Shown in pieces: positions 13,400-29,802 of a stretch of 38,082 nt of DNA (positions are counted from its first letter, which is position 1; the number at the start of each line of letters is the position of its first letter). The notes beneath the pieces were generated by a model. It was not told where the DNA came from and did no database searches. It was given only the letters and a program-made list of their open reading frames with translations. The DNA is from a virus, in the IMG/VR virus record IMGVR_UViG_3300027693_000002, one strand, 5' to 3'. Made by a program: the position numbers and the translations under genes.

Positions 13400-13954
13400 A
13401 TGAGCCAAACCGAACGAAATGGGGTCGTTCTTACGAGTGGACTTCTTGAGGGGTGGGAGGTTTCCAACCTCATCCCGAGTGAACAACTTCCAATGGAGGC
13501 GCTGAAGGTGTTCGAAGCCCCGATTTCCTCTGAGAACAAGATAGGGCTTCTCCTACGTGAAGAGATTCTTGGGGGAAGGGGGATGGTCTACGTGGCGGCT
13601 AGGGCTGCGCGCCGAGCCTGCACAGAGACAGGTTGGGACCATCCTGCTACCCTTCGAGCTCTCGACCTATGCGACCGTTACGCTGAGGGGGAAGAGATCT
13701 CAGCTAAAGCGCTAGGGGCAGCTGCTTTGGCTGTTTCTGAGGCTCCTTCAATGGCTGATGATGCCCCTTCAATGGATGCTTGGGAGGCTGCTCATGGGGC
13801 TGCTCGAGTTGCTTGGGCTGTTGCCGTTGATACTAGTGCCCGGACTAGGGCACTAACAGTTATTCGAACGGCTGTTAGTGCTGTCCCTAGTGAGAAGGAA
13901 GAGAGAAAAGCCCAACTCGCCGATTGTCGGGAGTGGCTTACGAGACGGGCCTAA
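13400..13954 (+). CDS. family A small protein (184 aa), paralogous to 17189..17803
   Basis: Promoter motif. The paralogue shares ...REEILGGRGMVYVAARAARRACTETGWDHPATLRALDLCDRY... Confidence 0.7.
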   Translation: MSQTERNGVVLTSGLLEGWEVSNLIPSEQLPMEALKVFEAPISSENKIGLLLREEILGGRGMVYVAARAARRACTETGWDHPATLRALDLCDRYAEGEEISAKALGAAALAVSEAPSMADDAPSMDAWEAAHGAARVAWAVAVDTSARTRALTVIRTAVSAVPSEKEERKAQLADCREWLTRRA

Positions 13955-13963
13955 GGAATTTGG

Positions 13964-13999
13964 TTGAGTTCTCTAGGCGCCCATGCGTAATAGGGTGGC
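13964..13999 (+). promoter_or_regulatory. consensus leaderless promoter
   Basis: TTGAGT (13964-13969), 15-nt spacer, GCGTAATA (13985-13992), then ATG at 14000. Confidence 0.65.
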
Positions 14000-14356
14000 A
14001 TGAGCAAAGTCGAACGAGAAGCTGTCATCCTGAACACGGTTCCTGGTTCGAAGTGGTATCAGTGCGTGAATAGCAAGTGGGTAGTGGGCTTGGTCGAGAG
14101 GGTAACCAAGACTACGATCTACCTCGAAGGGGGGACTCGCATCTCGAAGAGGAACTGTCGTGACCAAGATGGTTGGGCTTGGTATCCACCCACTCAGAAC
14201 ATCGTCAAGCAGTTCGAGGACTTTGAGGTCGCCAGGGTTGCTTACGAGGCGGCCGTAGAGAAGCTTCGAGAGGCAGCTCAGCGTGCTACGCCTGCTCAAC
14301 TTCTCAAGCTAGCCACTCAGCTAGAGAGCCTCATTGACCTGTCGGAGATTCACTGA
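14000..14356 (+). CDS. family B small protein (118 aa), with paralogues at 15380 and 16333
   Basis: Shared ...NTVPGSKWYQC...W...VTKTT...GG..ISK..CRD..G..W.PPTQ...; promoter motif upstream. Confidence 0.75.
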   Translation: MSKVEREAVILNTVPGSKWYQCVNSKWVVGLVERVTKTTIYLEGGTRISKRNCRDQDGWAWYPPTQNIVKQFEDFEVARVAYEAAVEKLREAAQRATPAQLLKLATQLESLIDLSEIH

Positions 14357-14401
14357 CCGCTCGTACTAGGAGGCCCGAGAAATTGACCTCGGGTATGGGA
14401 C

Positions 14402-15196
14402 ATGAAAAAGCCAATTGAATTGATCGTTCGGGGTTCTGTTGAGATTTCATCCTTCCAATTCAGCCTTGAGGCCACAGAAAATGTGGTGTGGCTGTCACGT
14501 ACGATGCGTGGCGTAGTCTCCGGGCTACTAGGCGTGTCGACGGGCGACATTGACGTCGTTGTCGTTGACGATTTCTTTTCTGGTCGAGGCCGATGGGGCC
14601 AGGTTTTGGAGATCTCAAACAAGACTGGTAAGTTCGACGGGACTCGGCGGATTCGGATGCTATTTCGCCTGCTCCCAGAAGAGCAAGCTCGCGATTTGAG
14701 GCCAATTAGCCTTGAGGTATCGGCTGATGAGACAGTTCCCTGTACGGTCATGGTGAGTGACCGGTTCGCCGGCAAGGAATTGCTATGGTCGCAGTCTTTT
14801 GTTCGCTACTCACATCGATTGTCTGACCCGGTACGGGCCGCAGATATCCTGACATGGCACTGGACGCGCTACTACCGTTTCCTACCGTGGTGTGATGTCG
14901 AGGATTTGGCACGCGACTTCGGGACTGCGGCGATTGGACTCACTCTGAGTGAGGCGAATCGCCTTGCTTCAAGGCAGCTCTACCAGAGGGCTAGAGAACA
15001 GGGTTGGAGGAAGTTGACTCTACGAGAGCAATCCCGGTGGCAGCTCCGTGGTCAGTGGCATCGCGACGAGGATTGCGTCACAGCTCGCGCCAAGCTTGGT
15101 GCACCCAACGGGGCGTCCGAAGCCTCGAATAGGGCCTCGCGTGCCAATGGTAAGCTTGACGACTACGAGTACTTGGCCGAGCAAATGGAGATCTAG
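14402..15196 (+). CDS. hypothetical protein (264 aa)
   Basis: Long ORF. The upstream signal is non-consensus (TTGACC ... TATGGGAC). Confidence 0.55.
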   Translation: MKKPIELIVRGSVEISSFQFSLEATENVVWLSRTMRGVVSGLLGVSTGDIDVVVVDDFFSGRGRWGQVLEISNKTGKFDGTRRIRMLFRLLPEEQARDLRPISLEVSADETVPCTVMVSDRFAGKELLWSQSFVRYSHRLSDPVRAADILTWHWTRYYRFLPWCDVEDLARDFGTAAIGLTLSEANRLASRQLYQRAREQGWRKLTLREQSRWQLRGQWHRDEDCVTARAKLGAPNGASEASNRASRANGKLDDYEYLAEQMEI

Positions 15197-15343
15197 AAGT
15201 TGACTCCAAACCCAGCTTAAGTTTCATAGAATGGGGAGCCAAGCACTGGGTTCCGGATGGGGTACTTGATGTTGGCCGACTTCCCAGTACCCCAGCCAAA
15301 GCTAGTTTCTTGGGGGTACCACAGGCGAACGCTATAGATTTTG

Positions 15344-15379
15344 GTTATGGGTTCGCAGGGGGCAAGCGTAATAGAGAAC
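15344..15379 (+). promoter_or_regulatory. consensus leaderless promoter (weak -35, GTTATG)
   Basis: GCGTAATA at 15366-15373, gagaac, then ATG at 15380. Confidence 0.55.
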
Positions 15380-15751
15380 ATGAACGCAGTTGATCGCGAA
15401 GAGGCCATTCGAAATACGGTACCTGGTTCAAAGTGGTATCAGTGCATCCATGGTAAGTGGCATGCGGTTGAGGTCAAGAAGGTAACCAAGACTACGGTTG
15501 TGCTTCTGGGGGGCACTTGCATCTCGAAGGCAACCTGTCGTGATCATGCTGGGCGGATCTGGTTTCCACCCACTCAGGACCTAGTTCTGGAGGTCATGGC
15601 GAAGAAGGACGCGATGACCTCTTACCTGGCAGCTCTAGAGAAGCTTCGAGCTATTGCTCAGTGGACTACAGCTGACCAGCTCCGGCAACTAGTCACCCAG
15701 ATGGAGAGCCTCATTGACCTCGTCACCGTCAATAGGGGCATAGGCCGGTGA
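15380..15751 (+). CDS. family B small protein (123 aa). The start is placed at the internal ATG defined by the promoter geometry and the paralogue N-termini.
   Basis: MNAVDREEAIRNTVPGSKWYQC... aligns with the family B N-termini. The track ORF begins 39 nt upstream, inside the promoter. Confidence 0.7.
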   Translation: MNAVDREEAIRNTVPGSKWYQCIHGKWHAVEVKKVTKTTVVLLGGTCISKATCRDHAGRIWFPPTQDLVLEVMAKKDAMTSYLAALEKLRAIAQWTTADQLRQLVTQMESLIDLVTVNRGIGR

Positions 15752-16201
15752 AGGTGGTAGGGGACTTTTGAGCTCCCTGCGTTTGAGTTCTGGGCCGGGG
15801 GCGTAGGTGATCATTCCGCGATACTGGGTAATGACAACGACGTCTTCGAGCTGGAATCCGGCGGACTTGACGTTACGTTGGATTCCGCCGTTGAGGACTC
15901 CGGTGAACCAGTTTGGTTTCTGCTTGAACTGGTCAGCGATCATCCTAGCGGAGAGACCATTTGGGGGGCCGGTCTTGATGAACTGGAGGACCTTCTTGGG
16001 GTTCGGCTTCAAGGCGGAGAGGAGTTTCATCCACGCCGTATCCCGGTCGAGGCGTGCCACTACCGGGATACGTGCTACGGGCTTTGGTTCATCCGCGACT
16101 GCCTGAAGGGTTGGGTTGAAGCCGTTCTCCTGAAGGAAGACGAGGGCCTTGATGAGGGCTTGATCGTCCTCGGTCTCGAATTGTACGAGAAATCTCGTCA
16201 T
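15689..16201 (-). CDS. hypothetical protein (170 aa) on the minus strand between plus-strand genes
   Basis: ATG start with AAGG about 9 nt upstream; natural-looking composition. It overlaps the 3' end of the 15380 gene by 63 nt. A competing plus-strand ORF 15878..16309 has a TTG start. Confidence 0.45.
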   Translation of the reverse strand: MTRFLVQFETEDDQALIKALVFLQENGFNPTLQAVADEPKPVARIPVVARLDRDTAWMKLLSALKPNPKKVLQFIKTGPPNGLSARMIADQFKQKPNWFTGVLNGGIQRNVKSAGFQLEDVVVITQYRGMITYAPGPELKRRELKSPLPPSPAYAPIDGDEVNEALHLGD

Positions 16202-16297
16202 AGGGGGCGCCTTAGTGGTACTGTAGTCAAGGCGTCATGCAAGAGGTTTTTGAGTAGGGGGACTTTTGAGTCAGAGGTTGAGTCTGCCTCAAAAGTC

Positions 16298-16332
16298 TCT
16301 CAGGACTAGGGCACAGGTGGTGTGTAGTAGGT
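16298..16332 (+). promoter_or_regulatory. degenerate promoter variant (…GTGTAGTAggtATG)
   Basis: A GTAGTA box ends 3 nt before the ATG at 16333. The -35 is unclear. Confidence 0.3.
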
Positions 16333-16701
16333 ATGAGCAACGCTATTCTTGAGGAAGCCGTTCGAAATACGGTCGCTGGGTCGAAGTGGTACCACCAAGT
16401 GGGTCGTAGTTGGCGTGAGGTCACTGTTGAGCGGGTAACCAAGACAATGGTCATTCTTACCAGTGGGGTACGAATCCCGAAGAAAACTCGTTGGGCTGAC
16501 GGGCACATATGGTTCCCACCCACCCCTGAGATGGTGGCGCTCTATGAGGCCCAGGATGCTCAAGAGATGGCTCATATCTTATACGTAGTAGCCTTAGAGA
16601 GGCTCCAGGCGTTGGCTCGGAAGTTTACGACCAACCAACTACGTCAGTTGGCCACTCAGATGGAGAGAGCCATCAAAGAGGTGGGAGACTCGCAGGGGTA
16701 A
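16333..16701 (+). CDS. family B small protein (122 aa)
   Basis: Paralogue of 14000 and 15380. Confidence 0.7.
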   Translation: MSNAILEEAVRNTVAGSKWYHQVGRSWREVTVERVTKTMVILTSGVRIPKKTRWADGHIWFPPTPEMVALYEAQDAQEMAHILYVVALERLQALARKFTTNQLRQLATQMERAIKEVGDSQG

Positions 16702-16856
16702 TCGAACCACTTCGGCCTGCTGTAAAAAGGTTGACTACCGGGGTGGGGGTGGAGTACTTTCCCGTTTGGCCTGAGCGTGGTTCTCCAATCATCTTCCACG
16801 TACGGGCTAGGCCGGGCCAGTTCTCCTTGTGTGCGGAGGATTGGCTCGGTCTTCTT

Positions 16857-17147
16857 TTATGGGGACCTCAAAGAGCCGGGTGGCTCGGGCAAATACATCC
16901 AATGGGTCACTAGCTCGGACTTGGAAAAGCGTACCCAATAGCCAGCATCCGATTCCACTAACCAATGAGACGTGCGATCGTACTTTGCAACGAGGAGTGC
17001 GTCCCAGCTATGCACTTCGCCGCTCGGGTATCGATCTACACGATGGTAGACGAGTAGTGGTTCATCGACTGGGGGATGGCATTCAGTGACCGGTACCCAG
17101 CCTTTCCTTTCGGGTTCAGGCTTCTCTTTCATGGGGCAAAAGTACAC
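16857..17147 (-). CDS. hypothetical protein (96 aa), minus strand
   Basis: ATG-start ORF with reasonable composition, sitting between plus-strand genes. Confidence 0.35.
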   Translation of the reverse strand: MYFCPMKEKPEPERKGWVPVTECHPPVDEPLLVYHRVDRYPSGEVHSWDALLVAKYDRTSHWLVESDAGYWVRFSKSELVTHWMYLPEPPGSLRSP

Positions 17148-17150
17148 CAG

Positions 17151-17188
17151 TTGACTTTTGGAGGTGATCCACGGATAATGAGGGTGGT
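17151..17188 (+). promoter_or_regulatory. promoter variant (TTGACT-N16-GGATAATG-N8-ATG)
   Basis: TTGACT at 17151-17156 and GGATAATG at 17173-17180. Confidence 0.45.
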
Positions 17189-17803
17189 ATGATCACCATT
17201 ACGAAAGAACTCCTTGAGAGTTGGGAGCCTTCCGACCTTATCCCAGACGAACTACTCCCGATGGGAGTGATGGAGTTGTTTGAAGCATCGATTCCGTCTA
17301 ATGCTAAAGTAGGGGTACTCCTACATGAAGAGATTCTTGGGCGGAGGGGAATGGTCTATGTAGTGGCTCGGGTTGCACGCCGAGGCTGTACGAAGACAGG
17401 TTGGTTCCATCCTGATACCCTTCGAGCTTTAGATCTGTGTGACCGATTTGTTAACGGGGAAGCGGTCTCAAAGGAAGAACTAGAAAGGGCTGCTAAGGCT
17501 GCTTGGGAGGTTCTGTCTGAGGATGCTCCTTCAATGCCTGCTTGGAGGACTGCTCATAGAGCTGCTCGGGTTGCTCAGGCTGCTGCTTGGGCTGCTTCTG
17601 TTATGACTACTTTGGCTAATGCTCAGGCTGCTGCTAGGGCTGCTACGACTTGGGCTGCTCGAGCAGCCACTTCTAGTGCTAAAAGTGCTAAAGAGAGAAG
17701 AGCTCAACTTACTGATTGCCAAGATTGGCTTCTAAGGAATTCCCCACAAGAAAGGGCTCCCGTACTTACTCGGTACCAGCGGATAATGAGGTCGTTGTGC
17801 TAA
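17189..17803 (+). CDS. family A small protein (204 aa) with an Ala-rich repetitive C-terminus
   Basis: Paralogue of 13400..13954. Confidence 0.7.
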   Translation: MITITKELLESWEPSDLIPDELLPMGVMELFEASIPSNAKVGVLLHEEILGRRGMVYVVARVARRGCTKTGWFHPDTLRALDLCDRFVNGEAVSKEELERAAKAAWEVLSEDAPSMPAWRTAHRAARVAQAAAWAASVMTTLANAQAAARAATTWAARAATSSAKSAKERRAQLTDCQDWLLRNSPQERAPVLTRYQRIMRSLC

Positions 17804-18102
17804 CCCTGGGGGAGGGTTAATGCGCCGTAGGGGGGAATGCCTTGGTCCAGTTCCGGATTTTGAGTTTGACGCTGACCTGTAAGATAGGTTGCCGGTAAGG
17901 TTACGAGCAGTGCATCAAGACTCGAGGGTGGTGGGGAGCCAGGGTCACTCTCGTTTATGACCAGAACAATGGGGGTGGCCTGGATAGTTAGTAGATTGCT
18001 TACAGGTAGGTAAGCTCTTGGCTCATTCCTATAGTTACCAGCGTATTGAGTAACTACATGTAAGCTAGTCCCTTGTTCGAGCTTATAAGCTCGAGCCTCT
18101 TG

Positions 18103-18178
18103 ATTGCCTACACGTAGTTTTAGAGCATGTTCGTAGCAATAGTAATGAGCCAATCATAAAACTACGTGTAGTTACATA
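18103..18178. repeat. R1 inverted-repeat element, copy 2
   Basis: GCCTACACGTAGT...CGTAGCAATAGTAATGAG...CTACGTGTAGT. Confidence 0.6.
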
Positions 18179-18404
18179 CTTTCTGGTTGAGAGTCCGCTT
18201 TTTGGTACATACTACGACTCATGTCATCAGTTGAGGGGAAAGTCGCACACTTTTTGAGAGCCGTAAGGCTCGGTTTGGTGAAAGACGTTCCACCGGATGC
18301 TGTCACATGTGAGTTCCATACAAAACTCACATGTGACAGCATCCGGGCTGCCACGTGTGGGGATAGGATTCTCGTAGAAAGGCAGGAACGCCGTCGAAGT
18401 TTGG

Positions 18405-18439
18405 TTGAGTTTGGCAAGACTGGCACGTAATACTAGGGC
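18405..18439 (+). promoter_or_regulatory. consensus leaderless promoter (TTGAGT-N14-CACGTAATA-N7-ATG)
   Basis: TTGAGT at 18405-18410, then ATG at 18440. Confidence 0.6.
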
Positions 18440-18670
18440 ATGACCCTCAAACATACGGCTGACATGCTTGCCTCGCTCAACGAACTGACTGCCAAGGTGA
18501 CGGCATTCAAGTCGTTTGCTGAGCTAGCAGCTCGCATGCTTGATGGGTACGTTCCCACTCTACGTGGAGACGATGCGGACTCAAAGGCCCTCGCCCTAGG
18601 GATCACCAGGGCGGGATTCAAGGCTTGGAACCCGGCAACGGGACGGAATTGGGTCGACGAAACCGGTTGA
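18440..18670 (+). CDS. family C small protein (76 aa)
   Basis: Its C-terminal 45 aa are nearly identical to 18936..19169. Its stop codon lies inside the next -35 box (ACCGGTTGAGG). Confidence 0.7.
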   Translation: MTLKHTADMLASLNELTAKVTAFKSFAELAARMLDGYVPTLRGDDADSKALALGITRAGFKAWNPATGRNWVDETG

Positions 18671-18700
18671 GGTTCTCGAAGCTCGCGCGTAATAAGAGGC
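18667..18700 (+). promoter_or_regulatory. consensus leaderless promoter
   Basis: TTGAGG (18667-18672), 14-nt spacer, GCGTAATA (18687-18694), then ATG at 18701. Confidence 0.65.
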
Positions 18701-18919
18701 ATGCCCAAGACGAAAAAGCTAACCCCCACCCAGGTTAAAACTCTCCAAGAGATCATCAAGATTACGGGTGTGGGGTTTCCTTGGAGTTGTGTCCCGGAAT
18801 ACAAGCCGGCTCTTAAGCTGCTCGAGCTCGGGTACGTGTCGAAGACTAAAAGTTTAGGTGGGTCTCTAATCATCTTGGTTCCGACCGAGCTAGGTCGATC
18901 AGTGGCTTCGAGCTTGTAA
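18701..18919 (+). CDS. family D small protein (72 aa)
   Basis: Paralogue of 21236..21475, with the shared block WSC.PEYKPALKLLEL.YVSK...LVPTELGRSVAS. Confidence 0.7.
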   Translation: MPKTKKLTPTQVKTLQEIIKITGVGFPWSCVPEYKPALKLLELGYVSKTKSLGGSLIILVPTELGRSVASSL

Positions 18920-18935
18920 GAGGGGGATTTTCTAC

Positions 18936-19169
18936 ATGAAAAGCGAAGTTCAAGTTGCTGCCCAGATCGACAAACTCAACCAGCTAACGGCTTCGGCCAC
19001 GGCCTTTAGGTCGTTCGCGGAGTTAGCTGCCAAGATGCTCGATGGGTACGTTCCCACCCTACGAGGGGACGATGCTGACTCGAAGGCGTTGGCTCTCGAG
19101 ATCACCAAGGCAGGATTCAAGGCTTGGAACCCGGCGACTGGGCGGAACTGGGTCGACGAAACCGGTTGA
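18936..19169 (+). CDS. family C small protein (77 aa), SD-led
   Basis: AGAGGGGGA lies about 10 nt upstream. Paralogue of 18440. Confidence 0.7.
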   Translation: MKSEVQVAAQIDKLNQLTASATAFRSFAELAAKMLDGYVPTLRGDDADSKALALEITKAGFKAWNPATGRNWVDETG

Positions 19170-19200
19170 GGTTCTTGGGGGTCGTGCGTAATAGGATGGC
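19166..19200 (+). promoter_or_regulatory. consensus leaderless promoter
   Basis: TTGAGG (19166-19171), 14-nt spacer, GCGTAATA (19186-19193), then ATG at 19201. The stop codon of the previous gene is inside the -35. Confidence 0.65.
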
Positions 19201-19641
19201 ATGGCACGATACCTCATCACCGTAGCGGCAGTTCTCCTAGTCGACCTGAGTGGATGTGCCCCTTTAGAGGACCACTTCCAGGTGACAGGGGACGCTACGG
19301 AGGAAGAGATTGCGATCATGCAGGAGGCCTCGGACGCTTGGTGTGAAGCGACGAGTGGTGCTTGGTGCGCCCAGATGAACCGGGAAGAGGGCGCCAACAA
19401 GATTCGCATCGTGCCGGTAGGGGTATTGCCGGGGAAGGATCACGCCATCTACACCCACCACAAGGGGTTGTATGAGTGGCACGAGATCCGGATTACGGAC
19501 CGTCGGGATAGAGACACGTGGGAGTTTGACTTGTATTACACAGTACTCCACGAGATGGGGCACGCCTACAACCTGCACCATCAGGATGGTACGGTGATGC
19601 AAGTTGGTTATGATCGTACACTGTTCGAAGAGAAGCCATGA
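19201..19641 (+). CDS. putative lipoprotein zinc metallopeptidase (metzincin-like HEMGHAYNLHH)
   Basis: Signal peptide plus lipobox (LVDLSGC). An HExxH motif with a third His is spaced as in metzincins (HExxHxxxxxH, with Asn in place of the usual Gly). Confidence 0.6.
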   Translation: MARYLITVAAVLLVDLSGCAPLEDHFQVTGDATEEEIAIMQEASDAWCEATSGAWCAQMNREEGANKIRIVPVGVLPGKDHAIYTHHKGLYEWHEIRITDRRDRDTWEFDLYYTVLHEMGHAYNLHHQDGTVMQVGYDRTLFEEKP

Positions 19642-19815
19642 AAGAAAAACTGATTCGTTGGTTGGTCGGGACCCCCACTCATGAGACGGGGAGTAAGCGT
19701 ATTAGGACCGTATGCGACGCCATCAAGTGGCGCTTAGGGGGACTCCCCTGGTTGGACGCGTCGGTACGGTACGATGGTTCAGTATCCCTCTACTATTACA
19801 GGTAATCTTTCCCAA

Positions 19816-19850
19816 TTGAGTTCAGGATAGGCTCAAGCGTAATAGACGTG
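19816..19850 (+). promoter_or_regulatory. consensus promoter followed by a 22-nt SD-containing leader
   Basis: TTGAGT at 19816-19821 and GCGTAATA at 19837-19844. There is no ATG at the canonical spot. AGGAGA sits 8 nt before the ATG at 19865. Confidence 0.55.
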
Positions 19851-19864
19851 CAGGAGAAGAAACC

Positions 19865-22831: not shown

Positions 22832-22859
22832 GGGGCGGGCTTAAGGCGTCAGGAGGGAT
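22832..22859 (+). promoter_or_regulatory. family G leader module, copy 1 (GGGGCGGGCTTAAGGCGTCAGGAGGGAT-ATG; SD-containing)
   Basis: A 28-nt block repeated 3 times (also at 23195-23222 and 23540-23567), each ending 0-1 nt before an ATG. It contains AGGAGGG. Confidence 0.6.
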
Positions 22860-23135
22860 ATGGCAAGACTACAATACACGTACAAGTACCCACGGACTTC
22901 CTGGACGGACGTGCGCGAGACCCTCAGCGCTCGAAAGCGACGGTACTGGTACTCGCTCGAGGCCGCGGTTCGAGACATCGAGCGCATGATGCGCCCGGGC
23001 TGCACGAAAGAACCGTTCGTGCAGTTGATCGAGGTTCCTCCAGACGGTCCTATGCGCGTCCTAGCCGAGCGTACCCAAGACGAGTGGCTAGGTACTCTTG
23101 AAGCGGCTGGGTTCATCGCTCGCAGAGTCTCATAA
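22860..23135 (+). CDS. family G small protein (91 aa)
   Basis: MARLQYTYKY...; it shares its leader and its first residues with 23223. Confidence 0.5.
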   Translation: MARLQYTYKYPRTSWTDVRETLSARKRRYWYSLEAAVRDIERMMRPGCTKEPFVQLIEVPPDGPMRVLAERTQDEWLGTLEAAGFIARRVS

Positions 23136-23194
23136 GGTGAACCAACCTACATCGTTCCGCCTCGCTAGATAGTTCCGCCCGAACCCATTCAGTT

Positions 23195-23222
23195 GGGGCG
23201 GGCTTGAGGCGTCAGGAGGGAT
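23195..23222 (+). promoter_or_regulatory. family G leader module, copy 2
   Basis: GGGGCGGGCTTGAGGCGTCAGGAGGGAT, preceded by the hairpin CCGCCC...GGGCGG. Confidence 0.55.
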
Positions 23223-23480
23223 ATGACAAGACTACAATACACGAAGTTATGCGCATGGTTTGCGTTTTGGTATGTCGCATTGACAGCGTTACGGGCACTG
23301 CGCAACAGTGACACACTGATGTGTAAGTGGGCCTCGGTTGCGGCCAGGTGGCATCCGTGCGCCAAATCCGAGCCGGAGCTGCCAGATTATCCAGGTCGAG
23401 GGCCAGGAGGAGAGTCGCTGGTACGAGCGATCCATCTCGACGTTTTGCACGGCACGGACCGTGCATTTTCAAGTATGTGA
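23223..23480 (+). CDS. family G small protein (85 aa); diverged after the N-terminus
   Basis: MTRLQYT... Confidence 0.4.
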   Translation: MTRLQYTKLCAWFAFWYVALTALRALRNSDTLMCKWASVAARWHPCAKSEPELPDYPGRGPGGESLVRAIHLDVLHGTDRAFSSM

Positions 23481-23514
23481 GGAGGAAGTGATGAATATCA
23501 CATGCATACTATAC

Positions 23515-23567
23515 GCCTTAAGCCCGAACCCATTCAGTTGGGGCGGGCTTAAGGCATCAGGAGGGAT
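23515..23567 (+). promoter_or_regulatory. family G leader module, copy 3, with a 12-bp stem hairpin (GCCTTAAGCCCG / CGGGCTTAAGGC)
   Basis: The 3' arm of the hairpin is part of the conserved leader block just upstream of the SD. Confidence 0.55.
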
Positions 23568-23951
23568 ATGCCTACATTCAATTTAGAGGCACTGGAAAGT
23601 CTACCAGCTGGTACTATCCCAGATGGCTGGTACCCTATTAGGCGGGTTGATCTCGACGGCGTGCAACTGGTCGAGACCGATACAGGAGCTTACCGGCTTA
23701 CGGCCGGGGAACACGGGAAGAACCCCCATTTTGGGCGTGTGCAGAATATCCCCGGGCGTGGGCCCGCGTGGATGCGTTTGATTTTCCGCGAATGTGCCTA
23801 TGGCGCGGAGTCGGATTCTGCCCAGCAAGCGATTGCTGAGGCCATAGAGGCCGAGAACGCTGAGAGTCAAGTCCGACCCCCTTCTTCGATTGAGCGCGCA
23901 AACGAACTTCAGGGGGTAAGCGCCAAAGCGGGCCCCTCCAAAACCGGTTGA
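23568..23951 (+). CDS. hypothetical protein (127 aa)
   Basis: ORF that follows a module-type leader. It ends ...AAAACCGGTTGA, inside the next -35 box. Confidence 0.5.
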   Translation: MPTFNLEALESLPAGTIPDGWYPIRRVDLDGVQLVETDTGAYRLTAGEHGKNPHFGRVQNIPGRGPAWMRLIFRECAYGAESDSAQQAIAEAIEAENAESQVRPPSSIERANELQGVSAKAGPSKTG

Positions 23952-23981
23952 GCTTCGTGTTGCCCGCGCGTAATACTGGGC
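23948..23981 (+). promoter_or_regulatory. consensus leaderless promoter
   Basis: TTGAGC (23948-23953), 14-nt spacer, GCGTAATA (23968-23975), then ATG at 23982. Confidence 0.6.
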
Positions 23982-24245
23982 ATGGCACATAGAACTCACC
24001 GCAAGTTGGCAAAGCGACTGATCAGCCCTTGTTGGATGATCCGGACCGGGATTGCTTGCGAGCAGATCTCCCCCGTGTATCCGACCCTTGAGAAGGGATT
24101 CGAGGAGGTGGTCTCCGCCGTTTGCGGGTTTGACCCACTGTCAAGTCCGGACACCATCGAGCTCGTCCGCCACAGTCGGCGGAATCCAAAGCTTCTCGTC
24201 CGGTACTACTGTACGGATGAGGGGAAGATCGTCCAGGTTCAGTAG
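23982..24245 (+). CDS. hypothetical protein (87 aa)
   Basis: ORF at the promoter. Confidence 0.55.
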   Translation: MAHRTHRKLAKRLISPCWMIRTGIACEQISPVYPTLEKGFEEVVSAVCGFDPLSSPDTIELVRHSRRNPKLLVRYYCTDEGKIVQVQ

Positions 24246-24258
24246 GCGCGCTTTCTGG

Positions 24259-24293
24259 TTAATTTCGTCACGGGTTTCCGCGTAATAATGGGC
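24259..24293 (+). promoter_or_regulatory. consensus leaderless promoter (TTAATT -35)
   Basis: GCGTAATA at 24280-24287. The canonical ATG is at 24294; an extra ATG at 24288 directly abuts the box. Confidence 0.55.
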
Positions 24294-24677
24294 ATGTCGA
24301 ACAACGTTCATCTCCTGGATTTTATTCACACTGGGACTCAACAGCAGTTGGTTGCATTCGCCTGCAAGGTAGCTAAGCGAGCCAGCCCCGGGCCTGCTGG
24401 ACTTCATGCGATCGAGATTGCGGAGCGATGGCTCCGGGGTGAAGCTATTTCGAAGGAAGAACTCATCGTCGCGGGAGATGCGGCCTCTGATGCAGACGAT
24501 GACCTGGCAGGCTACGCTACCATCGCGGCGGCCTTTCCAGGAGATGCCGTCGAAGCGGCTTACATAACGGCGATCCACGCTTTGGATGATCTTGACGACC
24601 ACGCTCAGGAGGCTGAGGTGGCTCAACAAGTCCAGGACTTTCTTGATATCTTGGGTGGAAACCCAGCAAAGGAGTGA
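24288..24677 (+). CDS. hypothetical acidic protein (129 aa from 24288, or 127 aa from 24294)
   Basis: First gene of an operon whose downstream genes are SD-led. Confidence 0.6.
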   Translation: MGMSNNVHLLDFIHTGTQQQLVAFACKVAKRASPGPAGLHAIEIAERWLRGEAISKEELIVAGDAASDADDDLAGYATIAAAFPGDAVEAAYITAIHALDDLDDHAQEAEVAQQVQDFLDILGGNPAKE

Positions 24678-25177
24678 ATATGGGAGAGTTTTCGGAACAA
24701 TTGATGTCTGGGGGGCCGGAGCTCTTAGCGCTACCCGCAGATCCGGTTATAGGCGAGGCGTTGACCTCGATGCAGGCCTACCCGGAGGAATGGTGGTGTG
24801 AGCTTCAAGAGCTTCAACCAAAGCTTCGTATGGCGATTCTGGAGACGGCAGTGGCTGGAGATCGGGCTGCCCAGGATGCTGATTGGCTCCTGAGTGATTA
24901 TGATACCTTCAACTATGCGTTGAATACCCGAACGTTTGACGAGGGCTTCTTGCGGTTTGTCATGGGATTGCTCGAGTGTGGGCCGGGTTTACACTTCAGT
25001 GGACCACGGTTCCGGTTAGCTTTCCGACTTGGAGTACTGAACGCGGCTTCCTTCCAGGATAAGCATCGGAAGGACATGGTTATTTGCCGCTCACAGGATG
25101 CTGCCCCTTGGGAAGCTCGACCAATGCAGCTCTTACGGAGGCTGGCCGCCGTAAAGGTAAAGCCCGAACCCAAGTAG
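24674..25177 (+). CDS. hypothetical protein (167 aa), SD-led, with a 4-nt overlap
   Basis: AAGGAG lies 9 nt upstream of the start. Confidence 0.55.
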   Translation: MNMGEFSEQLMSGGPELLALPADPVIGEALTSMQAYPEEWWCELQELQPKLRMAILETAVAGDRAAQDADWLLSDYDTFNYALNTRTFDEGFLRFVMGLLECGPGLHFSGPRFRLAFRLGVLNAASFQDKHRKDMVICRSQDAAPWEARPMQLLRRLAAVKVKPEPK

Positions 25178-25198
25178 AACAGTGGGTGAGGGCGGCCC

Positions 25199-25606
25199 AT
25201 GAAACTCGAGGAAGTGACCGCTGGAAGGCGATTGAAACTGAGCAATCTCGCTCAGTTAGAAGGGGTATACCAAATGCTAGGTAGAAGGGGCATTCCATCT
25301 ATTTCGTTGAAACAATTGGTAGATGATGCGGTTTTTGCACTCTCACGGTTCCAACACGAGAAAGGGACTGTCAGCGAGCTACGTTCCCTGGCAAGTCCGA
25401 ATCACATCATGGACTTGATCTTCTTTGCCAACGCGAAGTCGGTCACTTTTCGTGATCGTGGCGTGGAGTGCGCGGTCGAAGCGGACAAGCGAGACTGTCA
25501 GCTCGCTGCTCTCGCGTTGGTCAAGATAGCCCAGCGAGCTGAACACATTGTGGAGGTCCTTCGAGGAAGGAGAATACCAGATGTGGTACGACATTGTGAA
25601 CGGTAA
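25199..25606 (+). CDS. hypothetical protein (135 aa)
   Basis: ORF in the operon. Confidence 0.5.
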   Translation: MKLEEVTAGRRLKLSNLAQLEGVYQMLGRRGIPSISLKQLVDDAVFALSRFQHEKGTVSELRSLASPNHIMDLIFFANAKSVTFRDRGVECAVEADKRDCQLAALALVKIAQRAEHIVEVLRGRRIPDVVRHCER

Positions 25607-25946
25607 CGGGGACTTTCTCGGACGTGCTAATGGGGATACGCCGGAGGGGGCCGTCGAAGGAGTCCAAAAGTACTGGCCATGTCCCGAAGACCGTTGGCTT
25701 CGAGACCCAAGTAACAAGGAGTCCCAGGACCTTCTCATTCCTGGGGCCAAGAAGGAACAGGAACTGGTCCGAAAGGATGTTTGGGCCTTCTGCAAACCCC
25801 ACATTAAGGGAATGCTGGGTGTGCAGACCAAACCGTTGAATAAGCCCCCGCAATTCTTAGATGGGGAGTACTACTACGAGGTTCTTGGTAAGACCTACTG
25901 CGTCAAGATCGTGCTTGATGCAGTCTTCATCACCCGCATCAAATAG
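25548..25946 (+). CDS. family F protein (132 aa), with its C-terminal 57 aa shared with 25999..26541
   Basis: AAGGAG SD. The C-terminal block KDVWAFC.PHIKGM....KPLNKPPQFLDGEY.YEVLGKTYCVKIVLDAVFITR.K is duplicated. Confidence 0.6.
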   Translation: MWRSFEEGEYQMWYDIVNGNGDFLGRANGDTPEGAVEGVQKYWPCPEDRWLRDPSNKESQDLLIPGAKKEQELVRKDVWAFCKPHIKGMLGVQTKPLNKPPQFLDGEYYYEVLGKTYCVKIVLDAVFITRIK

Positions 25947-25963
25947 AACTGACTCAAAGAGAG

Positions 25964-25998
25964 TTGAGTTCTTGGACCCTCGCGCGTAATAGAGGGGT
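25964..25998 (+). promoter_or_regulatory. consensus leaderless promoter
   Basis: TTGAGT (25964-25969), 14-nt spacer, GCGTAATA (25984-25991), then ATG at 25999. Confidence 0.65.
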
Positions 25999-26541
25999 AT
26001 GCAAGACCAAGACGATATCAAGGAAGAGCTCAAGCACATTGTCTGGGGTCTCGCCATCGAAGGGGCCACGGCTCATCTCCACGAGACCAGCGTTACCTTC
26101 AAGGCCGAGGGGGTGGATTGCTCCATCTATACGGAGGTGCTTGCGATCCCGAACCAAGTGACCAAGGACGCCGAGGGGAATGAATACGTTCCCTTGGAGG
26201 TCAGAGTCACCCTAGTTGAGCCAATTTTTGCTTTAGACACGCCCAAGGAAATCATCGCCCGACTCCAATTCGGGCTCAAGGTTGCCCAGCTCGCGCAGAG
26301 CATTGTTGATCACTTCGCAGGCCGAGACCTTCGGTGCCTCCTCTGTAGCGCAGGTGAGAGGGCCGAGAAGGATGTTTGGGCCTTCTGCACACCCCACATT
26401 AAGGGAATGCGGGTAGACAAGACCAAGCCGTTGAATAAGCCCCCGCAATTCTTAGATGGGGAGTACCACTACGAGGTTCTTGGTAAGACCTACTGCGTCA
26501 AGATCGTGCTTGATGCAGTCTTCATCACGCGCACCAAATAG
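25999..26541 (+). CDS. family F protein (180 aa)
   Basis: Its C-terminal domain is duplicated from the previous gene, and the promoter is duplicated with it (a 40-nt identical upstream block). Confidence 0.65.
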   Translation: MQDQDDIKEELKHIVWGLAIEGATAHLHETSVTFKAEGVDCSIYTEVLAIPNQVTKDAEGNEYVPLEVRVTLVEPIFALDTPKEIIARLQFGLKVAQLAQSIVDHFAGRDLRCLLCSAGERAEKDVWAFCTPHIKGMRVDKTKPLNKPPQFLDGEYHYEVLGKTYCVKIVLDAVFITRTK

Positions 26542-26557
26542 AACGGACCCAAAAAAG

Positions 26558-26591
26558 TTGAGTTCTTGGACCCTCGCGCGTAATAGAGGGC
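26558..26591 (+). promoter_or_regulatory. consensus leaderless promoter
   Basis: Identical to the 25964 promoter over about 35 nt (TTGAGTTCTTGGACCCTCGCGCGTAATAGAGGGC). Confidence 0.65.
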
Positions 26592-26795
26592 ATGAAGACG
26601 GAACTCATGGTTGGCTCAGAACTCGTAAAACGCCGCCGTAGCCTCTCGTACCCTTCTGGAACTGTCAAGGTTCCTGGAACCTTGGTCACGATTGTCGGAT
26701 CGACTCCCAAGTTTTGGGAGTTGAGCGATGACACTCTCGTGTCAAAAACCACTCTCGAAGCAAAAGGTTCGCTATTCACTTACAGTGTGAGCTGA
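26592..26795 (+). CDS. hypothetical protein (67 aa)
   Basis: ORF at the promoter. Confidence 0.5.
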   Translation: MKTELMVGSELVKRRRSLSYPSGTVKVPGTLVTIVGSTPKFWELSDDTLVSKTTLEAKGSLFTYSVS

Positions 26796-26800
26796 TAGCC

Positions 26801-27106
26801 ATGAACCAACGAGATATGCCACCAGGGACCAAGGTGGCTTACACAGGTAAGTTCCTACGTTCGGCGGGCCTCTACACGGGTTCAGCGGGCCTTGACCAGT
26901 TCGTAGTCCAAGAGTGCCACTGCCCTCACTGCAAGGGCAAGACTCGGGTAGCCGTCAACCGGCTCGCTTCTTGGACCGATCCCCATGAGCCTGGGTACGA
27001 CCCCGAGTACGCTCGTGATCTCAAGGCTGAGGTGGGGAACACCTGGCTGCACATAAGTCCGACGGCCCTCTACGTGGTAGGGGAGTTGGACCCAAGGAAC
27101 GTCTGA
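26801..27106 (+). CDS. hypothetical protein with a CHCPHC motif (101 aa)
   Basis: ORF. Confidence 0.45.
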   Translation: MNQRDMPPGTKVAYTGKFLRSAGLYTGSAGLDQFVVQECHCPHCKGKTRVAVNRLASWTDPHEPGYDPEYARDLKAEVGNTWLHISPTALYVVGELDPRNV

Positions 27107-27149
27107 CTTCGTTGGACTGTCTCGCCCCGAGACGGGGTATTAGGTCCCC

Positions 27150-27422
27150 ATGGACCTAAAAAGGTACGAGAGCAAGGTGACGGCCCTTCTAAACCTACTT
27201 AGGGAGCACGAAGTCCTGTCCTCTCAGCTACCAATTGGGTTCTCAGAAGCTTGCTTCGTTGCTGAGGAGTTCGGCCTGGCCTACGCCAGAAAAGACCTCA
27301 CCTTAACGTCAAGGGACAAGGCTATCTGGGTATGGAGGATCACCGACGCTGGTCGCCGTTGGCTCAAAGAGCGAGAGCATCCTGAAGTCCCTCCGACAGA
27401 AGTTCTCCCCACGAAGGATTGA
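27150..27422 (+). CDS. family E small protein (90 aa)
   Basis: Paralogue of 28412..28666 (MDL.KYESK..ALL..LR.H..LS..LP.G..EAC..AEE.GLAYARKD..L.S..KAIW.WRIT..G..WLK.RE.PEVPPT). A GTATTAGG box precedes the ATG. Confidence 0.6.
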   Translation: MDLKRYESKVTALLNLLREHEVLSSQLPIGFSEACFVAEEFGLAYARKDLTLTSRDKAIWVWRITDAGRRWLKEREHPEVPPTEVLPTKD

Positions 27423-27452
27423 GTTTCTGAGCCCTTATGCGTAATACTGGGC
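27419..27452 (+). promoter_or_regulatory. consensus leaderless promoter
   Basis: TTGAGT (27419-27424) overlaps the stop of the previous gene; GCGTAATA (27439-27446); then ATG at 27453. Confidence 0.6.
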
Positions 27453-27671
27453 ATGCCGAATGAAGACCATCAGGTGGTGCTTGGAATCCAAGTAAAGAAG
27501 AACGCAAAGGGGATGCGAGTGGGAGCCTCGAAAGAGGTTTTCCACATGACGATTGGGCTGAGCCAGAAGGCCATGATCCTTCCGGGTCGTCACTTGGTGG
27601 TGCTCGGGACCCGACGTTACCGGGTAGAGGTCGACCAGAACAAGAACCTCAAGATTACTCGTACGGTTTGA
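27453..27671 (+). CDS. hypothetical basic protein (72 aa)
   Basis: A frameshifted remnant of its 5' end, with its own promoter, recurs at 31651. Confidence 0.6.
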   Translation: MPNEDHQVVLGIQVKKNAKGMRVGASKEVFHMTIGLSQKAMILPGRHLVVLGTRRYRVEVDQNKNLKITRTV

Positions 27672-27724
27672 CCTAAGTTCAAGAGATAGGGGGAGTGATC
27701 CACAGACTTGGGTCACTCCCTCGT

Positions 27725-27900
27725 TATCCATGTAAGCAAATACGTGGTTCGTTACTATTGATACGAACAGTGCACTCGCTTACATGTAGTTTTTGCTCAC
27801 GTTCGTTACTATTGATACGAAAGCTAAGGTTGCCTACACGTAAGTATCAAGCACGTTCGAATCTATAGTAATGAACACGATTTTGGTCTACGTGTAGTAT
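27725..27900. repeat. R1 inverted-repeat element, copy 3, plus two extra direct copies of the 19-21-mer GTTCGTTACTATTGATACGAA
   Basis: 19-21-mers at 27748-27768 and 27802-27822 in one orientation, and CGAATCTATAGTAATGAAC at 27858-27875 inverted. Termini are GCCTACACGTAAGT / CTACGTGTAGT. CATGTAAGC...GCTTACATG flanks the first 19-21-mer. Confidence 0.65.
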
Positions 27901-27945
27901 GAGGAGACCACTTGACCGCCCTGAAGGTCAGCCAACAAGTATCTC

Positions 27946-28325
27946 CTCTTGACCACTTGACCGCCCTGAGGTATCCTCCGGGGGTCGTAAGTTCATCTTG
28001 CCCAGCACCCGAACAGGCCCAGAGCCTTCCTTCTGGGGTTAGCGAGGCAGAGTGAACCTCCTACGACACTCATCCTAGATGAAGATACCATGCCTCAGCT
28101 AGGCCGAACCGGCCCTGCTAGGTCAAAGTAAGCTGACGATCTCTGTTCCCTGGAATGAGCCAATCCTTCCTCTTAGTAGGTAAACACAGGCTACGAGGGA
28201 CGCCCGAGTCCGAGTGCTGAAACGACCTAAACGGAACCGAAGTAGGACAAGTAGCTCAAATCTCAGCCTGAATCCCTTTGCTTTCGGAGCAATTGATTGG
28301 AAACGGGCTAAAAGTGCATTTACTT
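27946..28325. repeat. R2 large intergenic repeat, copy B (~380 nt)
   Basis: See copy A. It is preceded by two tandem copies of ACCACTTGACCGCCCTGA(A)GG (27905-27965). Confidence 0.75.
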
Positions 28326-28411
28326 GATTAACTACATCTCCTAGGACTAGCTGGACACCCTCACCCACCCCAGTTAGAATACATCCCAGAACGGGGTGAG
28401 CCGTATTCACG

Positions 28412-28666
28412 ATGGACCTAACCAAGTACGAAAGTAAGATAGCGGCCCTCCTAATCGTACTCAGAGGTCACGACATCCTGTCCCCCAACCTACCTAGCGG
28501 GTCCGCAGAGGCTTGTTCCATCGCCGAAGAGCTCGGCCTGGCCTACGCCAGAAAAGACGTCCACCTGTCATCCAGCATGAAAGCTATCTGGATTTGGAGG
28601 ATCACCGCCTCCGGTTGCCAATGGCTCAAAGATCGGGAGCGTCCTGAAGTACCCCCGACAGATTGA
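28412..28666 (+). CDS. family E small protein (84 aa)
   Basis: Paralogue of 27150. Confidence 0.6.
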   Translation: MDLTKYESKIAALLIVLRGHDILSPNLPSGSAEACSIAEELGLAYARKDVHLSSSMKAIWIWRITASGCQWLKDRERPEVPPTD

Positions 28667-28702
28667 GTTTGGAAACGGGCTAAAGGTGTATTTGGGGGTA
28701 CG

Positions 28703-28900
28703 ATGTCACCGATATCTCGTCAGGAGAAGAGCCTATTGGAGAGGGAGAGTCCTGGGGATCCTGCTGGGGATCTTCGGGAGAGGGACCGGCTCAGGAAGCA
28801 GCATGAGCGGGCACAGGATCCGGACAACATGAGGCTAATCCAAGCGTTACGTGAGTTTCTAGGGCTACAACCGCTACCTGGGATCCCAGAAAGAAAGTGA
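28703..28900 (+). CDS. hypothetical charged protein (65 aa)
   Basis: It is preceded by TTGAGT plus the GGAAACGGGCTAAAGGTGTATTTGGGGG element, but has no GCGTAATA box. Confidence 0.4.
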   Translation: MSPISRQEKSLLERESPGDPAGDLRERDRLRKQHERAQDPDNMRLIQALREFLGLQPLPGIPERK

Positions 28901-28909
28901 AGAACCTGG

Positions 28910-28943
28910 TTGAGGGTCCACCTCCTCGCGCGTAATAATAGGC
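28910..28943 (+). promoter_or_regulatory. consensus promoter with no ORF at the canonical position (ACG replaces ATG); it feeds a long hairpin
   Basis: TTGAGG (28910-28915), 14-nt spacer, GCGTAATA (28930-28937), ataggc, then ACG. Confidence 0.55.
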
Positions 28944-28944
28944 A

Positions 28945-29039
28945 CGAAGGTCAGAAGCTAAACCCCTCCTTGACTAGCTGTAGTGGGGTCCTTGACTAGC
29001 TGTAGTGGTTAGTGGGAGGGGTTTAGTTCCTGACCTTCG
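28945..29039 (+). ncRNA. 95-nt hairpin leader / ncRNA candidate. The ~25-bp stem has a 4-nt internal mismatch. The 45-nt loop holds two tandem copies of CCTTGACTAGCTGTAGTGG.
   Basis: The 5' arm CGAAGGTCAGAAGCTAAACCCCTCC (28945-28969) pairs with GGAGGGGTTTAGTTCCTGACCTTCG (29015-29039). The predicted transcription start of the upstream promoter is at about 28944. Confidence 0.45.
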
Positions 29040-29050
29040 TAGTCGGAACC

Positions 29051-29407
29051 GTGGGAGACATCGAAGTGAAGTTCATCGAGAAAACGACGTTACGGAATTG
29101 CGGCCCCGTTGATCAAGAGGAGGATTCGCCGGTGCACGGATCCCTTCTCGTGGGAGAAGAGTGTGTCGGAACCTACGAAGACCGACGGTCTTCGTGCGGG
29201 TATGACTTCGTTGAGGTTTTCCCCGCGTACCATCGTGGGGCGAAAGCGTGGCTGCTCACGGCTACGTGGTCCCCTGCTCGGGGGTACTCGGCAAGCGGGG
29301 TCCAGGATGCGGTGGTCCCCTTCGAGGAGGGGGTTCGAATTCTGCTCACTCATGGGGCATACGCGCATCTTTGGAAGTCAACTGGATTGGAGTACTTGGT
29401 GAAGTGA
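29051..29407 (+). CDS. hypothetical protein (118 aa), GTG start, 11 nt after the hairpin
   Basis: ORF. Its TGA stop overlaps the GTG start of the next gene (GTGA). Confidence 0.4.
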   Translation: MGDIEVKFIEKTTLRNCGPVDQEEDSPVHGSLLVGEECVGTYEDRRSSCGYDFVEVFPAYHRGAKAWLLTATWSPARGYSASGVQDAVVPFEEGVRILLTHGAYAHLWKSTGLEYLVK

Positions 29408-29802
29408 CCAAGCTCACCAACTCGCAAAAGTCCTTACTGAGATCTATCCAGGCTCTCTCATCTGAGGGTAACAGGTCAGTAGAGGTCTTACCTTCCGAGA
29501 TTACGACAGCCAAGGCCCTCGAGCGAAAGGGGCTCGTCACCCTTCACTCCACCCAGGTAGGGGGCAGGGAGTCCTACGAGGCCACCCTGGTAGTGATCGA
29601 CTCCCGGCGTGAGGTCATTGGGGTCATCGAGGAGTTCATGGTTCAGCTCCAATCCGCCTGCCGAGCCCTCGAAACGGAATCCGACTCAAGTACTCTCTTC
29701 GAGCACATGAGTACCGTTATGAGCCACGGGAGAATCGAATCGCTCCGCATAGCTCTTCGCAATCGGGCCCTCGAGCTCTACGAGGAAAAGAAGGGCTCGT
29801 AG
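29404..29802 (+). CDS. winged-helix-like small protein candidate (133 aa from a GTG start)
   Basis: The frame matches the track ORF 29248..29802, but its N-terminal 52 aa look non-coding (Gly-rich). A GTG at 29404 is coupled to the upstream stop. The stretch KSLLRSIQALSSEGNRSVEVLPSEITTAKALERKGLVTL resembles MarR/wHTH helices. Confidence 0.4.
   Translation: MTKLTNSQKSLLRSIQALSSEGNRSVEVLPSEITTAKALERKGLVTLHSTQVGGRESYEATLVVIDSRREVIGVIEEFMVQLQSACRALETESDSSTLFEHMSTVMSHGRIESLRIALRNRALELYEEKKGS

Follow-up and report, generated by a model that had tools for sequence, protein, structure and literature searches.

How does a phage come to carry, within 17 kb, several families of small paralogous genes, many of them directly behind copies of one promoter motif, and what might such an array do? 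The question is raised by the viral DNA of IMG/VR record IMGVR_UViG_3300027693_000002, of which a stretch of 38,082 nucleotides (38 kb, ~53% GC; hereafter the window) was analysed. The DNA belongs to an uncultured phage of sediment metagenomes, whose plus-strand accessory arm, between 13.4 and 31 kb, holds ~40 small genes, nearly all of them ORFans, with almost zero intergenic space. Since members of one of its families (family A) in this phage and its relatives are found on contigs of 95-120 kb, the entity is taken to be a phage of roughly 100 kb; extension of the sequence past either end of the window yielded short contigs only. We consider it probable that the region is a hyperplastic arm in which promoters are fused to the ATG start codon, genes form leaderless single-gene units, cassettes turn over at repeats, and family A is immunity-like.

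Small-gene families that are tandemly or locally expanded, as proposed in a preliminary description of this DNA, are borne out by all-vs-all blastp and phmmer comparisons. The outcome is at least seven protein families of two to three copies, designated A, B, C, D, E, F and H. Of the seven families originally listed, A to F stand at the positions given for them (all-vs-all blastp, E 1e-23 to 1e-49) and G does not hold as a protein family, whereas H is an eighth, added here; the observation was thus largely right and its interpretation right in part only. For comparison we used a single sister genome, a phage represented by a 94.9-kb contig (L022) from another Joint Genome Institute (JGI) sample.

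All family members lie on the plus strand. The two copies of family A, A1 at 13400-13954 (184 amino acids (aa), putatively leaderless) and A2 at 17189-17803 (204 aa, behind a canonical TTGACT-17-GATAAT promoter), are 52% identical over 187 aa (blastp E 6e-49). A distant third member not listed before, at 24294-24677 (127 aa, putatively leaderless), matches A2 and A1 by phmmer (E 1e-5 and 9e-4, respectively) in an alignment that covers the AERWLRGEAISKEEL helix. Family B comprises B1 at 14000-14356 (118 aa) and B2 at 15380-15751 (123 aa, 53% identical to B1), both putatively leaderless, and B3 at 16333-16701 (122 aa, 43-50% identical to B1 and B2), with 43-53% identity across the trio (blastp E 4e-24 to 1e-34); the start originally assigned to B2 is correct, a promoter copy ending 6 nt upstream of it. 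The family C proteins, C1 at 18440-18670 (76 aa, putatively leaderless, its TGA stop codon inside the next -35 element) and C2 at 18936-19169 (77 aa, led by a Shine-Dalgarno site), are 81-83% identical over 70-72 aa (blastp E 3e-41). Family D consists of D1 at 18701-18919 (72 aa) and D2 at 21236-21475 (79 aa, its N-terminus related to family H), which are both putatively leaderless and share 67-68% identity over 70 aa (blastp E 1e-30). Family E, with E1 at 27150-27422 (90 aa) and E2 at 28412-28666 (84 aa), shows 64% identity over 84 aa (blastp E 3e-39). In family F the 84% identity is confined to the C-terminal 61 aa (blastp E 1e-33): F1 occupies 25581-25946 (121 aa from the ATG at 25581, in an open reading frame (ORF) that opens at a TTG at 25548), and F2, at 25999-26541 (180 aa, putatively leaderless), has a longer N-terminus unrelated to F1. 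As a test of gene fusion or fission, the F2 N-terminus was compared with the 25199 protein and gave a weak 13-aa match (E 0.002). Finally, family H has one full-length member at 29404-29802 (132 aa; 45% identity, E 6e-29, to 8035-8436 of the sister phage) and a remnant with an in-frame internal deletion at 21059-21205 (48 aa), which is 95% identical to both ends of a 133-aa homologue in the sister phage and matches the 29404 protein by phmmer (E 6e-4).

The supposed family G, composed of the 22860 and 23223 genes with 23568 attached through its leader, turned out to be a repeated translation-initiation region. The three proteins have at most their first seven residues (MxRLQYT) in common, or nothing. 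The repeat consists of a 50-nt leader, TGGGGCGGGCTTAAGGCGTCAGGAGGGAT-ATG, in which the Shine-Dalgarno site is strong, plus ~7 codons, and in two copies 16 nt upstream of the leader are conserved as well. The repeats lie on the plus strand at 22831-22880 (leader with an AGGAGGG Shine-Dalgarno site, ATG and first codons), 23194-23243 (96% identical to the first) and 23539-23588 (76%).

Much of the array is organized around a second repeated unit, the consensus promoter GTTGAG-N15/16-GCGTAATA, which is present in 20 plus-strand copies where ~0.2 would be expected. The scan, allowing two mismatches or fewer, returned 13 sites for the N15 pattern and eight for N16, against a chance expectation of 0.11 sites per pattern; 20 of these 21 are plus-strand sites, 18 of them between 13365 and 29843, and the minus strand gave a single weak match with two mismatches. 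When the sites are aligned on TAATA, spacers vary and GGTTGAG(TTC) and (CTC)NNGCGTAATA form conserved flanks. An ATG follows TAATA after 6-7 nt in 18 of the 20 sites, usually as NNNGGC-ATG, a position that implies leaderless mRNAs. A TA-rich signal ~10 nt before the start codon is the accepted way to predict leaderless genes, and these are commonest in Actinobacteria and Deinococcus-Thermus (PMC3160421). By a strict version of this test (TA-rich -10-like signal ~10 nt upstream, no Shine-Dalgarno site), 16 of the 39 plus-strand genes qualify, and 10 others have a Shine-Dalgarno site.

Within the array, predicted promoters on the plus strand occupy 13365-13393 (ATG at 13400), 13963-13992 (14000), 20851-20879 (20886; conserved in the sister phage with a different discriminator), 22575-22604 (22611), 25963-25991 (25999), 26557-26585 (26592; identical to the 25963 copy) and 29814-29843 (29850). 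More degenerate copies are found at 15344-15373 (15380; two mismatches) and 24258-24287 (24294), and variant ones at 21201-21229 (GTTGAT; 21236) and 21898-21927 (GTAGTA; 21934), while the copy at 19815-19844 is followed by a 20-nt Shine-Dalgarno leader before the ATG at 19865. Promoters and coding sequences are tightly interlocked. In five cases the TGA of a GTTGAG is the stop codon of the gene before it, and a -35 element holds the stop codon of C1 at 18666-18694 (18701), of C2 at 19165-19193 (19201), of the 23568 gene at 23947-23975 (23982) and of E1 at 27418-27446 (ATTGAG; 27453). One promoter (18404-18432; ATG at 18440) lies wholly within the preceding ORF, 18221-18430. The motif match at 28909-28937 has no ORF at +1: perfect consensus promoters at 28909-28944 and 31616-31651 are both of this kind, with just three codons at 31651, and may drive noncoding or long-leader transcripts. 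One more consensus promoter, at 3441-3469, is located outside the array. Folding of the 45 nt that precede the promoters was no more stable than that of controls (-9.3 versus -10.7 kcal/mol, p 0.19), and terminator-like sites are not enriched (11 found, 15.9 expected).

Were these promoters duplicated together with their genes? That claim stands for families F and C only; elsewhere the sites share just the -35, the -10 and the distance to the ATG, and because spacers differ among the 20 sites, they are best described as instances of one consensus. The identity reported between the sites at 25964 and 26558 is real: its 33-34 identical nt are the tail of a 232-nt duplication at 92.7% identity (25766-25996 and 26360-26590, plus strand), each half of which carries the family F C-terminal domain and a promoter. 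In family C, a 222-nt repeat at 80% identity covers the 3' end and the promoter.

Estimates of the ratio of nonsynonymous to synonymous substitution rates (dN/dS, Nei-Gojobori), as suggested in the preliminary description, ranged from 0.12 to 0.53 across all paralog pairs, so that all copies are maintained coding genes. The individual values were 0.53 for family A (dS 0.60), 0.32-0.46 for B (dS 0.75-1.5), 0.12 for C (dS 1.04), 0.15 for D (dS 1.24), 0.35 for E (dS 0.62) and 0.52 for the shared domain of F (dS 0.17). Most duplications are old (dS 0.6-1.5) and that of F is recent (dS 0.17). Divergence is indeed concentrated in segments, the proportions of nonsynonymous to synonymous differences (pN/pS) being 1.03 in the central part of family A versus 0.50 in its N-terminal part, and 0.51 at the N-terminus of family C versus 0.09 at its C-terminus. 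The central segment of family A is Ala/Trp-rich and has indels. The C-terminal 45 aa of family C, previously called identical, match at 47 of 50 aa, with a DNA pS of 0.52. As pN over these 50 codons is 0.05, their conservation points to strong purifying selection and not to recent conversion or a recent swap; the suggestion that the C proteins are specificity-swapped variants found no support.

Comparison with the sister phage, which uses the same consensus promoter, confirms that the array turns over fast, by copy-number change, allele replacement and cassette insertion at the same loci. The sister genome is mosaic relative to the window, some loci being 96-100% identical at the nucleotide level and others 72-80%: the noncoding element X1 (100%), g264 (99%), B3 (98.6%), the DUF551 gene (96.6%) and B2 (96.5%) fall in the former class, and A1 (80%), B1 (79.5%), g232 (78%) and A2 (72%) in the latter. 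Its only C gene aligns with C1 in the 5' part and with C2 in the 3' part, and D1 as well as the second C copy is missing, as would be expected if the C repeats had recombined unequally. Furthermore, it has five H paralogs where the window has the deleted remnant, and two copies of the 61-aa gene found at 20620 in the window. Its B1 orthologue (1396-2001) is broken by a stop codon and followed by an extra consensus promoter and a 58-aa putatively leaderless ORF that corresponds to the family B C-terminal hairpin alone.

The proteins themselves have few relatives. Searches of the 40 array proteins against Pfam, PHROGs, PADLOC and NCBIfam yielded nothing usable, the few matches being sub-threshold (best E 0.00028), and no toxin or enzyme domain was detected in 40 neighbouring proteins with the same four collections. 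Family A has ~22 clusters among 5.8e9 proteins, with up to six copies on one contig, family D five clusters and family E three among the same number, and family B 11 representatives among 1.84e9 proteins; judged by these searches, the families appear nearly confined to this phage clade and are near-ORFans. Three head-to-tail family A copies, one of them apparently frameshifted, occupy 10001-11791 of a 197-kb contig (Ga0105102_10000001, L028) that is otherwise unrelated, encoding Ro60/TROVE, a peptide deformylase, a dCTP deaminase and an SPFH protein, and this locus is without the window's promoter motif. A genome scan with distant family A homologues returned only an Anaerolineae metagenome-assembled genome (SCUK01000084.1, L025) and a Gemmatimonadota one (L026); the Anaerolineae setting resembles a prophage and has a DUF3799 PD-(D/E)XK nuclease close by. 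Both matches are too remote to name a host and are at most a faint hint.

Family A nevertheless has a recognizable architecture. Its AlphaFold2 model (predicted local distance difference test (pLDDT) score 89, predicted template modelling (pTM) score 0.86) is all-helical and, among the viral models of BFVD, matches entries at template modelling (TM) scores of 0.63-0.65, one of them annotated as Imm-5-like (probability 1.0). A distant family A homologue (P0019) reaches 23.2 bits on the Pfam model Imm5_like (PF21805), whose cut-off is 25. On the strength of the fold matches and the P0019 score we take family A to belong, as a divergent member, to the class of Imm5-like immunity folds. SsdAI, itself all-helical, is an immunity protein and acts by plugging the active site of a deaminase toxin (PMC7901873), and family A models share the all-helical fold of the Imm5-like/SsdAI/DUF416 immunity proteins of polymorphic toxin systems (PF21805; PDB 7jtu_B, 3f7c, 2q9r; PMC7901873), at a sequence identity to the structural matches of 11-18%. 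Unlike those proteins, family A is phage-encoded, no adjacent toxin gene was found, and no window protein matches the Pfam model, A1, A2 and the 24294 protein included; a family A profile gave no meaningful match to PDB sequences. The models thus suggest a divergent Imm5-like/SsdAI-like immunity fold, short of formal Pfam membership, and make the family a candidate toxin- or defence-neutralising array.

Other families can be assigned with more reserve. The AlphaFold2 model of B1 (pLDDT 91) shows a small beta-barrel and a helical hairpin, which suggests that family B has a Tudor/SH3-like barrel followed by a coiled or helical hairpin. D and H have an N-terminal domain in common (hhalign E 5e-5, probability 68%), and on inspection D, E and H appear to resemble winged helices; D and E show no relation to each other by hhalign, and their profiles had no match among PDB sequences.

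Two kinds of noncoding repeat are interspersed with the genes. The X element occurs at 13170-13300, 18050-18175 and 27780-27900. It contains three TACRYGTA/CTACRYGTAG boxes, exactly 54 bp apart, inside a larger dyad symmetry, and resembles an operator array. The first copy and the start region of the leftward 13169 gene overlap. An exact-pattern scan for X in IMG/VR returned 0 matches. The Y element, a noncoding repeat of ~430 nt at 21463-21900 with a second copy at 27948-28330, has a 136-nt core that is 99% identical between these two copies, more conserved than any protein paralog, and ~79% identical in the copy of the sister phage (10374-10627). Each Y starts with TTGACC-17-TATCCT. Y was considered as a protein gene and rejected, no frame being open in all three copies. 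Thermodynamics give no support to Y as a structured RNA, with minimum free energy z-scores of +0.85 and +0.10, and there are few compensatory pairs among the three sequences and no Rfam match. A permissive Rfam scan of the region of the third X and second Y copies gave chance-level matches only, and an exact-pattern scan for the Y core in IMG/VR and a metagenome collection gave 0 matches.

Several explanations compete with a hyperplastic arm built in this way. The preliminary description had itself pointed to assembly artefacts, that is, collapsed or duplicated contig segments, to which chimeras of related strains may be added. Contigs from other samples do break within the Y core, which therefore acts as an assembler-confusing repeat, but each Y copy is fully spanned by at least one independent contig (L016 for the first, L015 for the second). 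The same sequence was assembled independently in at least five JGI samples (3300009081, 3300009146, 3300009168, 3300027675 and 3300027743) and one Logan run (SRR5468422), in contigs that jointly cover 9774-33144 at 99.98-100% identity, and seven independent assemblies, from two pipelines, agree in the paralog order at 100% identity. Moreover, protein paralogs 43-84% identical are too diverged for collapsed or duplicated reads, and the sister phage carries the same families in synteny. An artefact is accordingly almost certainly not the explanation. A more serious rival holds that most copies were captured horizontally from other phages as separate alleles, by cassette capture, and not duplicated in place. 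At A1 and A2, the sister phage is as far from the positional counterparts in the window (72-80% at the nucleotide level) as paralogs are from each other, within flanks 96-99% identical, and the 197-kb contig with three family A copies in tandem, unrelated in other respects, comes from the same site. Yet in F and C the duplicated segments are clearly local and take in noncoding DNA beside the genes, and the near-confinement of the families to this clade means that donors would be close relatives. Capture of most copies is a reasonable possibility that we think less likely than not, and the two routes are not mutually exclusive.

The remaining rivals concern expression and function. Several points weigh against the hyperplastic-arm reading here: we infer promoter activity and leaderless starts from the geometry of the sites, and recombination at repeats from comparison with one sister genome; TAATA, though -10-like, is missing the final T that sigma-70/sigmaA -10 elements conserve, and scanning for canonical sigma-70 promoters gave no enrichment (10 found, 8.4 expected); the fold matches of family B are weak (Z <= 6.3); and the winged-helix call for D and H draws on inspection and one hhalign match (probability 68%). 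Given the missing T and the unenriched scan, the genes need not be 'early', as they had been called. The same two observations favour a motif whose 20 copies are read by a phage-encoded or alternative, extracytoplasmic function (ECF)-like, sigma factor or polymerase, the array then being a middle or late regulon and not a set of host-sigma early genes. CGTAATA also resembles the -10 of ECF promoters, which is of CGTA type and follows a 16-17-nt spacer, and the promoters of the A2 gene and of both Y elements are different and look canonical. However, no sigma factor or RNA polymerase gene was detected by Pfam or PHROGs among the ~74 proteins of the window, which covers ~38 of ~100 kb, and a -35 of TTGAG spaced 17 nt from TAATA would also suit the housekeeping sigma of an unstudied host; we regard a dedicated sigma factor as rather unlikely. 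Equally doubtful, in our view, is that the arrays encode not anti-defence proteins but regulators or factors of superinfection exclusion, with phage or host DNA and RNA polymerase as their targets. The winged-helix resemblance notwithstanding, no Pfam DNA-binding domain was found, the D and E profiles are without PDB counterparts, and the fold of family A points to toxin immunity instead.

In the hyperplastic-arm reading, about half of the genes would be expressed as single-gene units from copies of GGTTGAG-N15/16-GCGTAATA, each placed for transcription to start at or next to the A of the ATG and thus to yield a leaderless mRNA. A gene without a Shine-Dalgarno site would be translatable only from its own 5' end and so would need its own promoter, which may account for the promoter density; read-through transcripts would support translation of only their first gene and of downstream Shine-Dalgarno-led genes. 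The repeated promoters, 'G' leaders and gene 3' ends would serve as short homologies at which unequal recombination could duplicate, delete, truncate and swap cassettes, as the sister-phage comparison supports. Purifying selection maintains all copies, although certain segments are locally relaxed or diversifying. Family A proteins, to judge by their fold, may neutralise a toxin or defence effector as helical binders of Imm5-like/SsdAI-like type, with the variable central segment setting specificity. A bolder extension, which we think quite improbable, is that the promoter-ATG fusion, beyond its role in expression, is the joint of a cassette system by which co-occurring phages capture, duplicate, truncate and exchange single leaderless genes, similar to promoter-early stem-loop (PeSL) regions or integrons and lacking terminators or integrase, that D, E and H acting on X boxes and Y form an undescribed regulatory circuit, and that family A is an immunity library against host toxin-type defences.

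Among known systems, the closest analogue would seem to be PeSL-mediated shuffling in T4-type phages. The PeSL hyperplastic regions of these phages are likewise clusters of small non-essential ORFans, each flanked by copies of one motif, a strong promoter there and a predicted one here, in which insertions, deletions and replacements between close relatives map to the repeated regulatory cassettes (PMC2839356; PMC4122927). In the one sister genome available here, breakpoints also lie at cassettes: the loss of D1 and C2 at the C/promoter repeat, the extra promoter with the family B C-terminus cassette, and the replaced A alleles. Unlike in PeSL regions, no stem-loop terminator lies beside the promoters and stop codons are placed within the -35; in addition, the promoter is fused to the ATG (putatively leaderless) and has a non-canonical -10, and for this phage megablast of 13000-30000 against 50,697 GenBank phage records returned zero matches. 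The Thermus phages phiYS40 and P23-45 produce predominantly leaderless transcripts. With such leaderless-rich phages and hosts, Actinobacteria and Deinococcus-Thermus among them, the array shares a TA-rich -10-like element ~10 nt upstream of many genes that have no Shine-Dalgarno site. It differs from them in that a full -35/-10 consensus recurs nearly verbatim before ~18 genes in 17 kb, and in that the motif coexists with genes led by a strong Shine-Dalgarno site (AGGAGGG). Early ORFan modules with lineage-specific paralogs are also known from other large phages, as in the host-takeover module of SPO1 and the pre-early genes of T5. Those modules similarly have dense, very small genes behind many strong promoters and little or no database homology; what sets the present array apart is its high paralogy, with seven families in 17 kb.

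Other features of the window complete the picture. Two minus-strand genes interrupt the array, one of 170 aa between B2 and B3 (15689-16201), called in three independent assemblies, and the DUF551 gene between B3 and A2 (16857-17147), with a PF04448 match on the called gene and 98% conservation in the sister phage. The 146-aa protein encoded at 19201-19641 has a lipoprotein-like N-terminal signal (LSGC), a HEMGH zinc-peptidase motif and a weak Pfam peptidase match; its conservation in the sister phage is 91%. Leftward genes extend from 13169 to 9144, rightward ones start at 13400, and the cumulative GC skew reverses at ~13 kb. At 12640-12840, in a ~780-bp noncoding stretch at this strand switch and GC-skew turn, TTGTATATCAC(T) occurs six times in both orientations; it is also repeated in the sister phage, and the cluster is a candidate replication origin or operator cluster. 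The left part of the window includes, at 5203-5949 on the minus strand, a gene for a Thg1-like tRNA-His guanylyltransferase (Pfam Thg1 E 1e-26, plus Thg1C), in a window with no tRNA gene and no Rfam family, and the gene for a 654-aa protein, from which PHROG virion-protein matches probably stem. This structural protein has nine IMG/VR relatives at 36-46% identity, and the promoter motif is absent from these. The segment 31126-31548 matches three places at 83-88% identity on a related 120-kb contig (L023; 1273-1406, 8151-8581 and 17207-17333), one of which adjoins the 3' end of a TnpB (IS605 OrfB) gene, and it may be a repeat derived from a transposon end or omega-RNA. Lastly, two unrelated genes are each followed by a copy of a 66-nt repeat (79% identity; 3330-3395 and 30289-30354) with a CCCC...GGGG hairpin.

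Large phages commonly have accessory regions rich in paralogs, and current understanding is not overturned by the present one, which is a familiar fast-evolving phage accessory region built in an unusual way. It contributes seven clade-restricted small-protein families, with good structure models for two. Most worth attention are the predicted one-promoter-per-gene leaderless layout and the immunity-fold array of family A, a diversifying set of proteins that is a candidate for screening against toxin-type defence effectors. If the proposed reading is true, the arm would be a compact natural example of leaderless translation shaping phage genome architecture, with a promoter for each gene, stop codons inside the -35 and no terminators, in which the resulting repeats drive rapid gene duplication and exchange.

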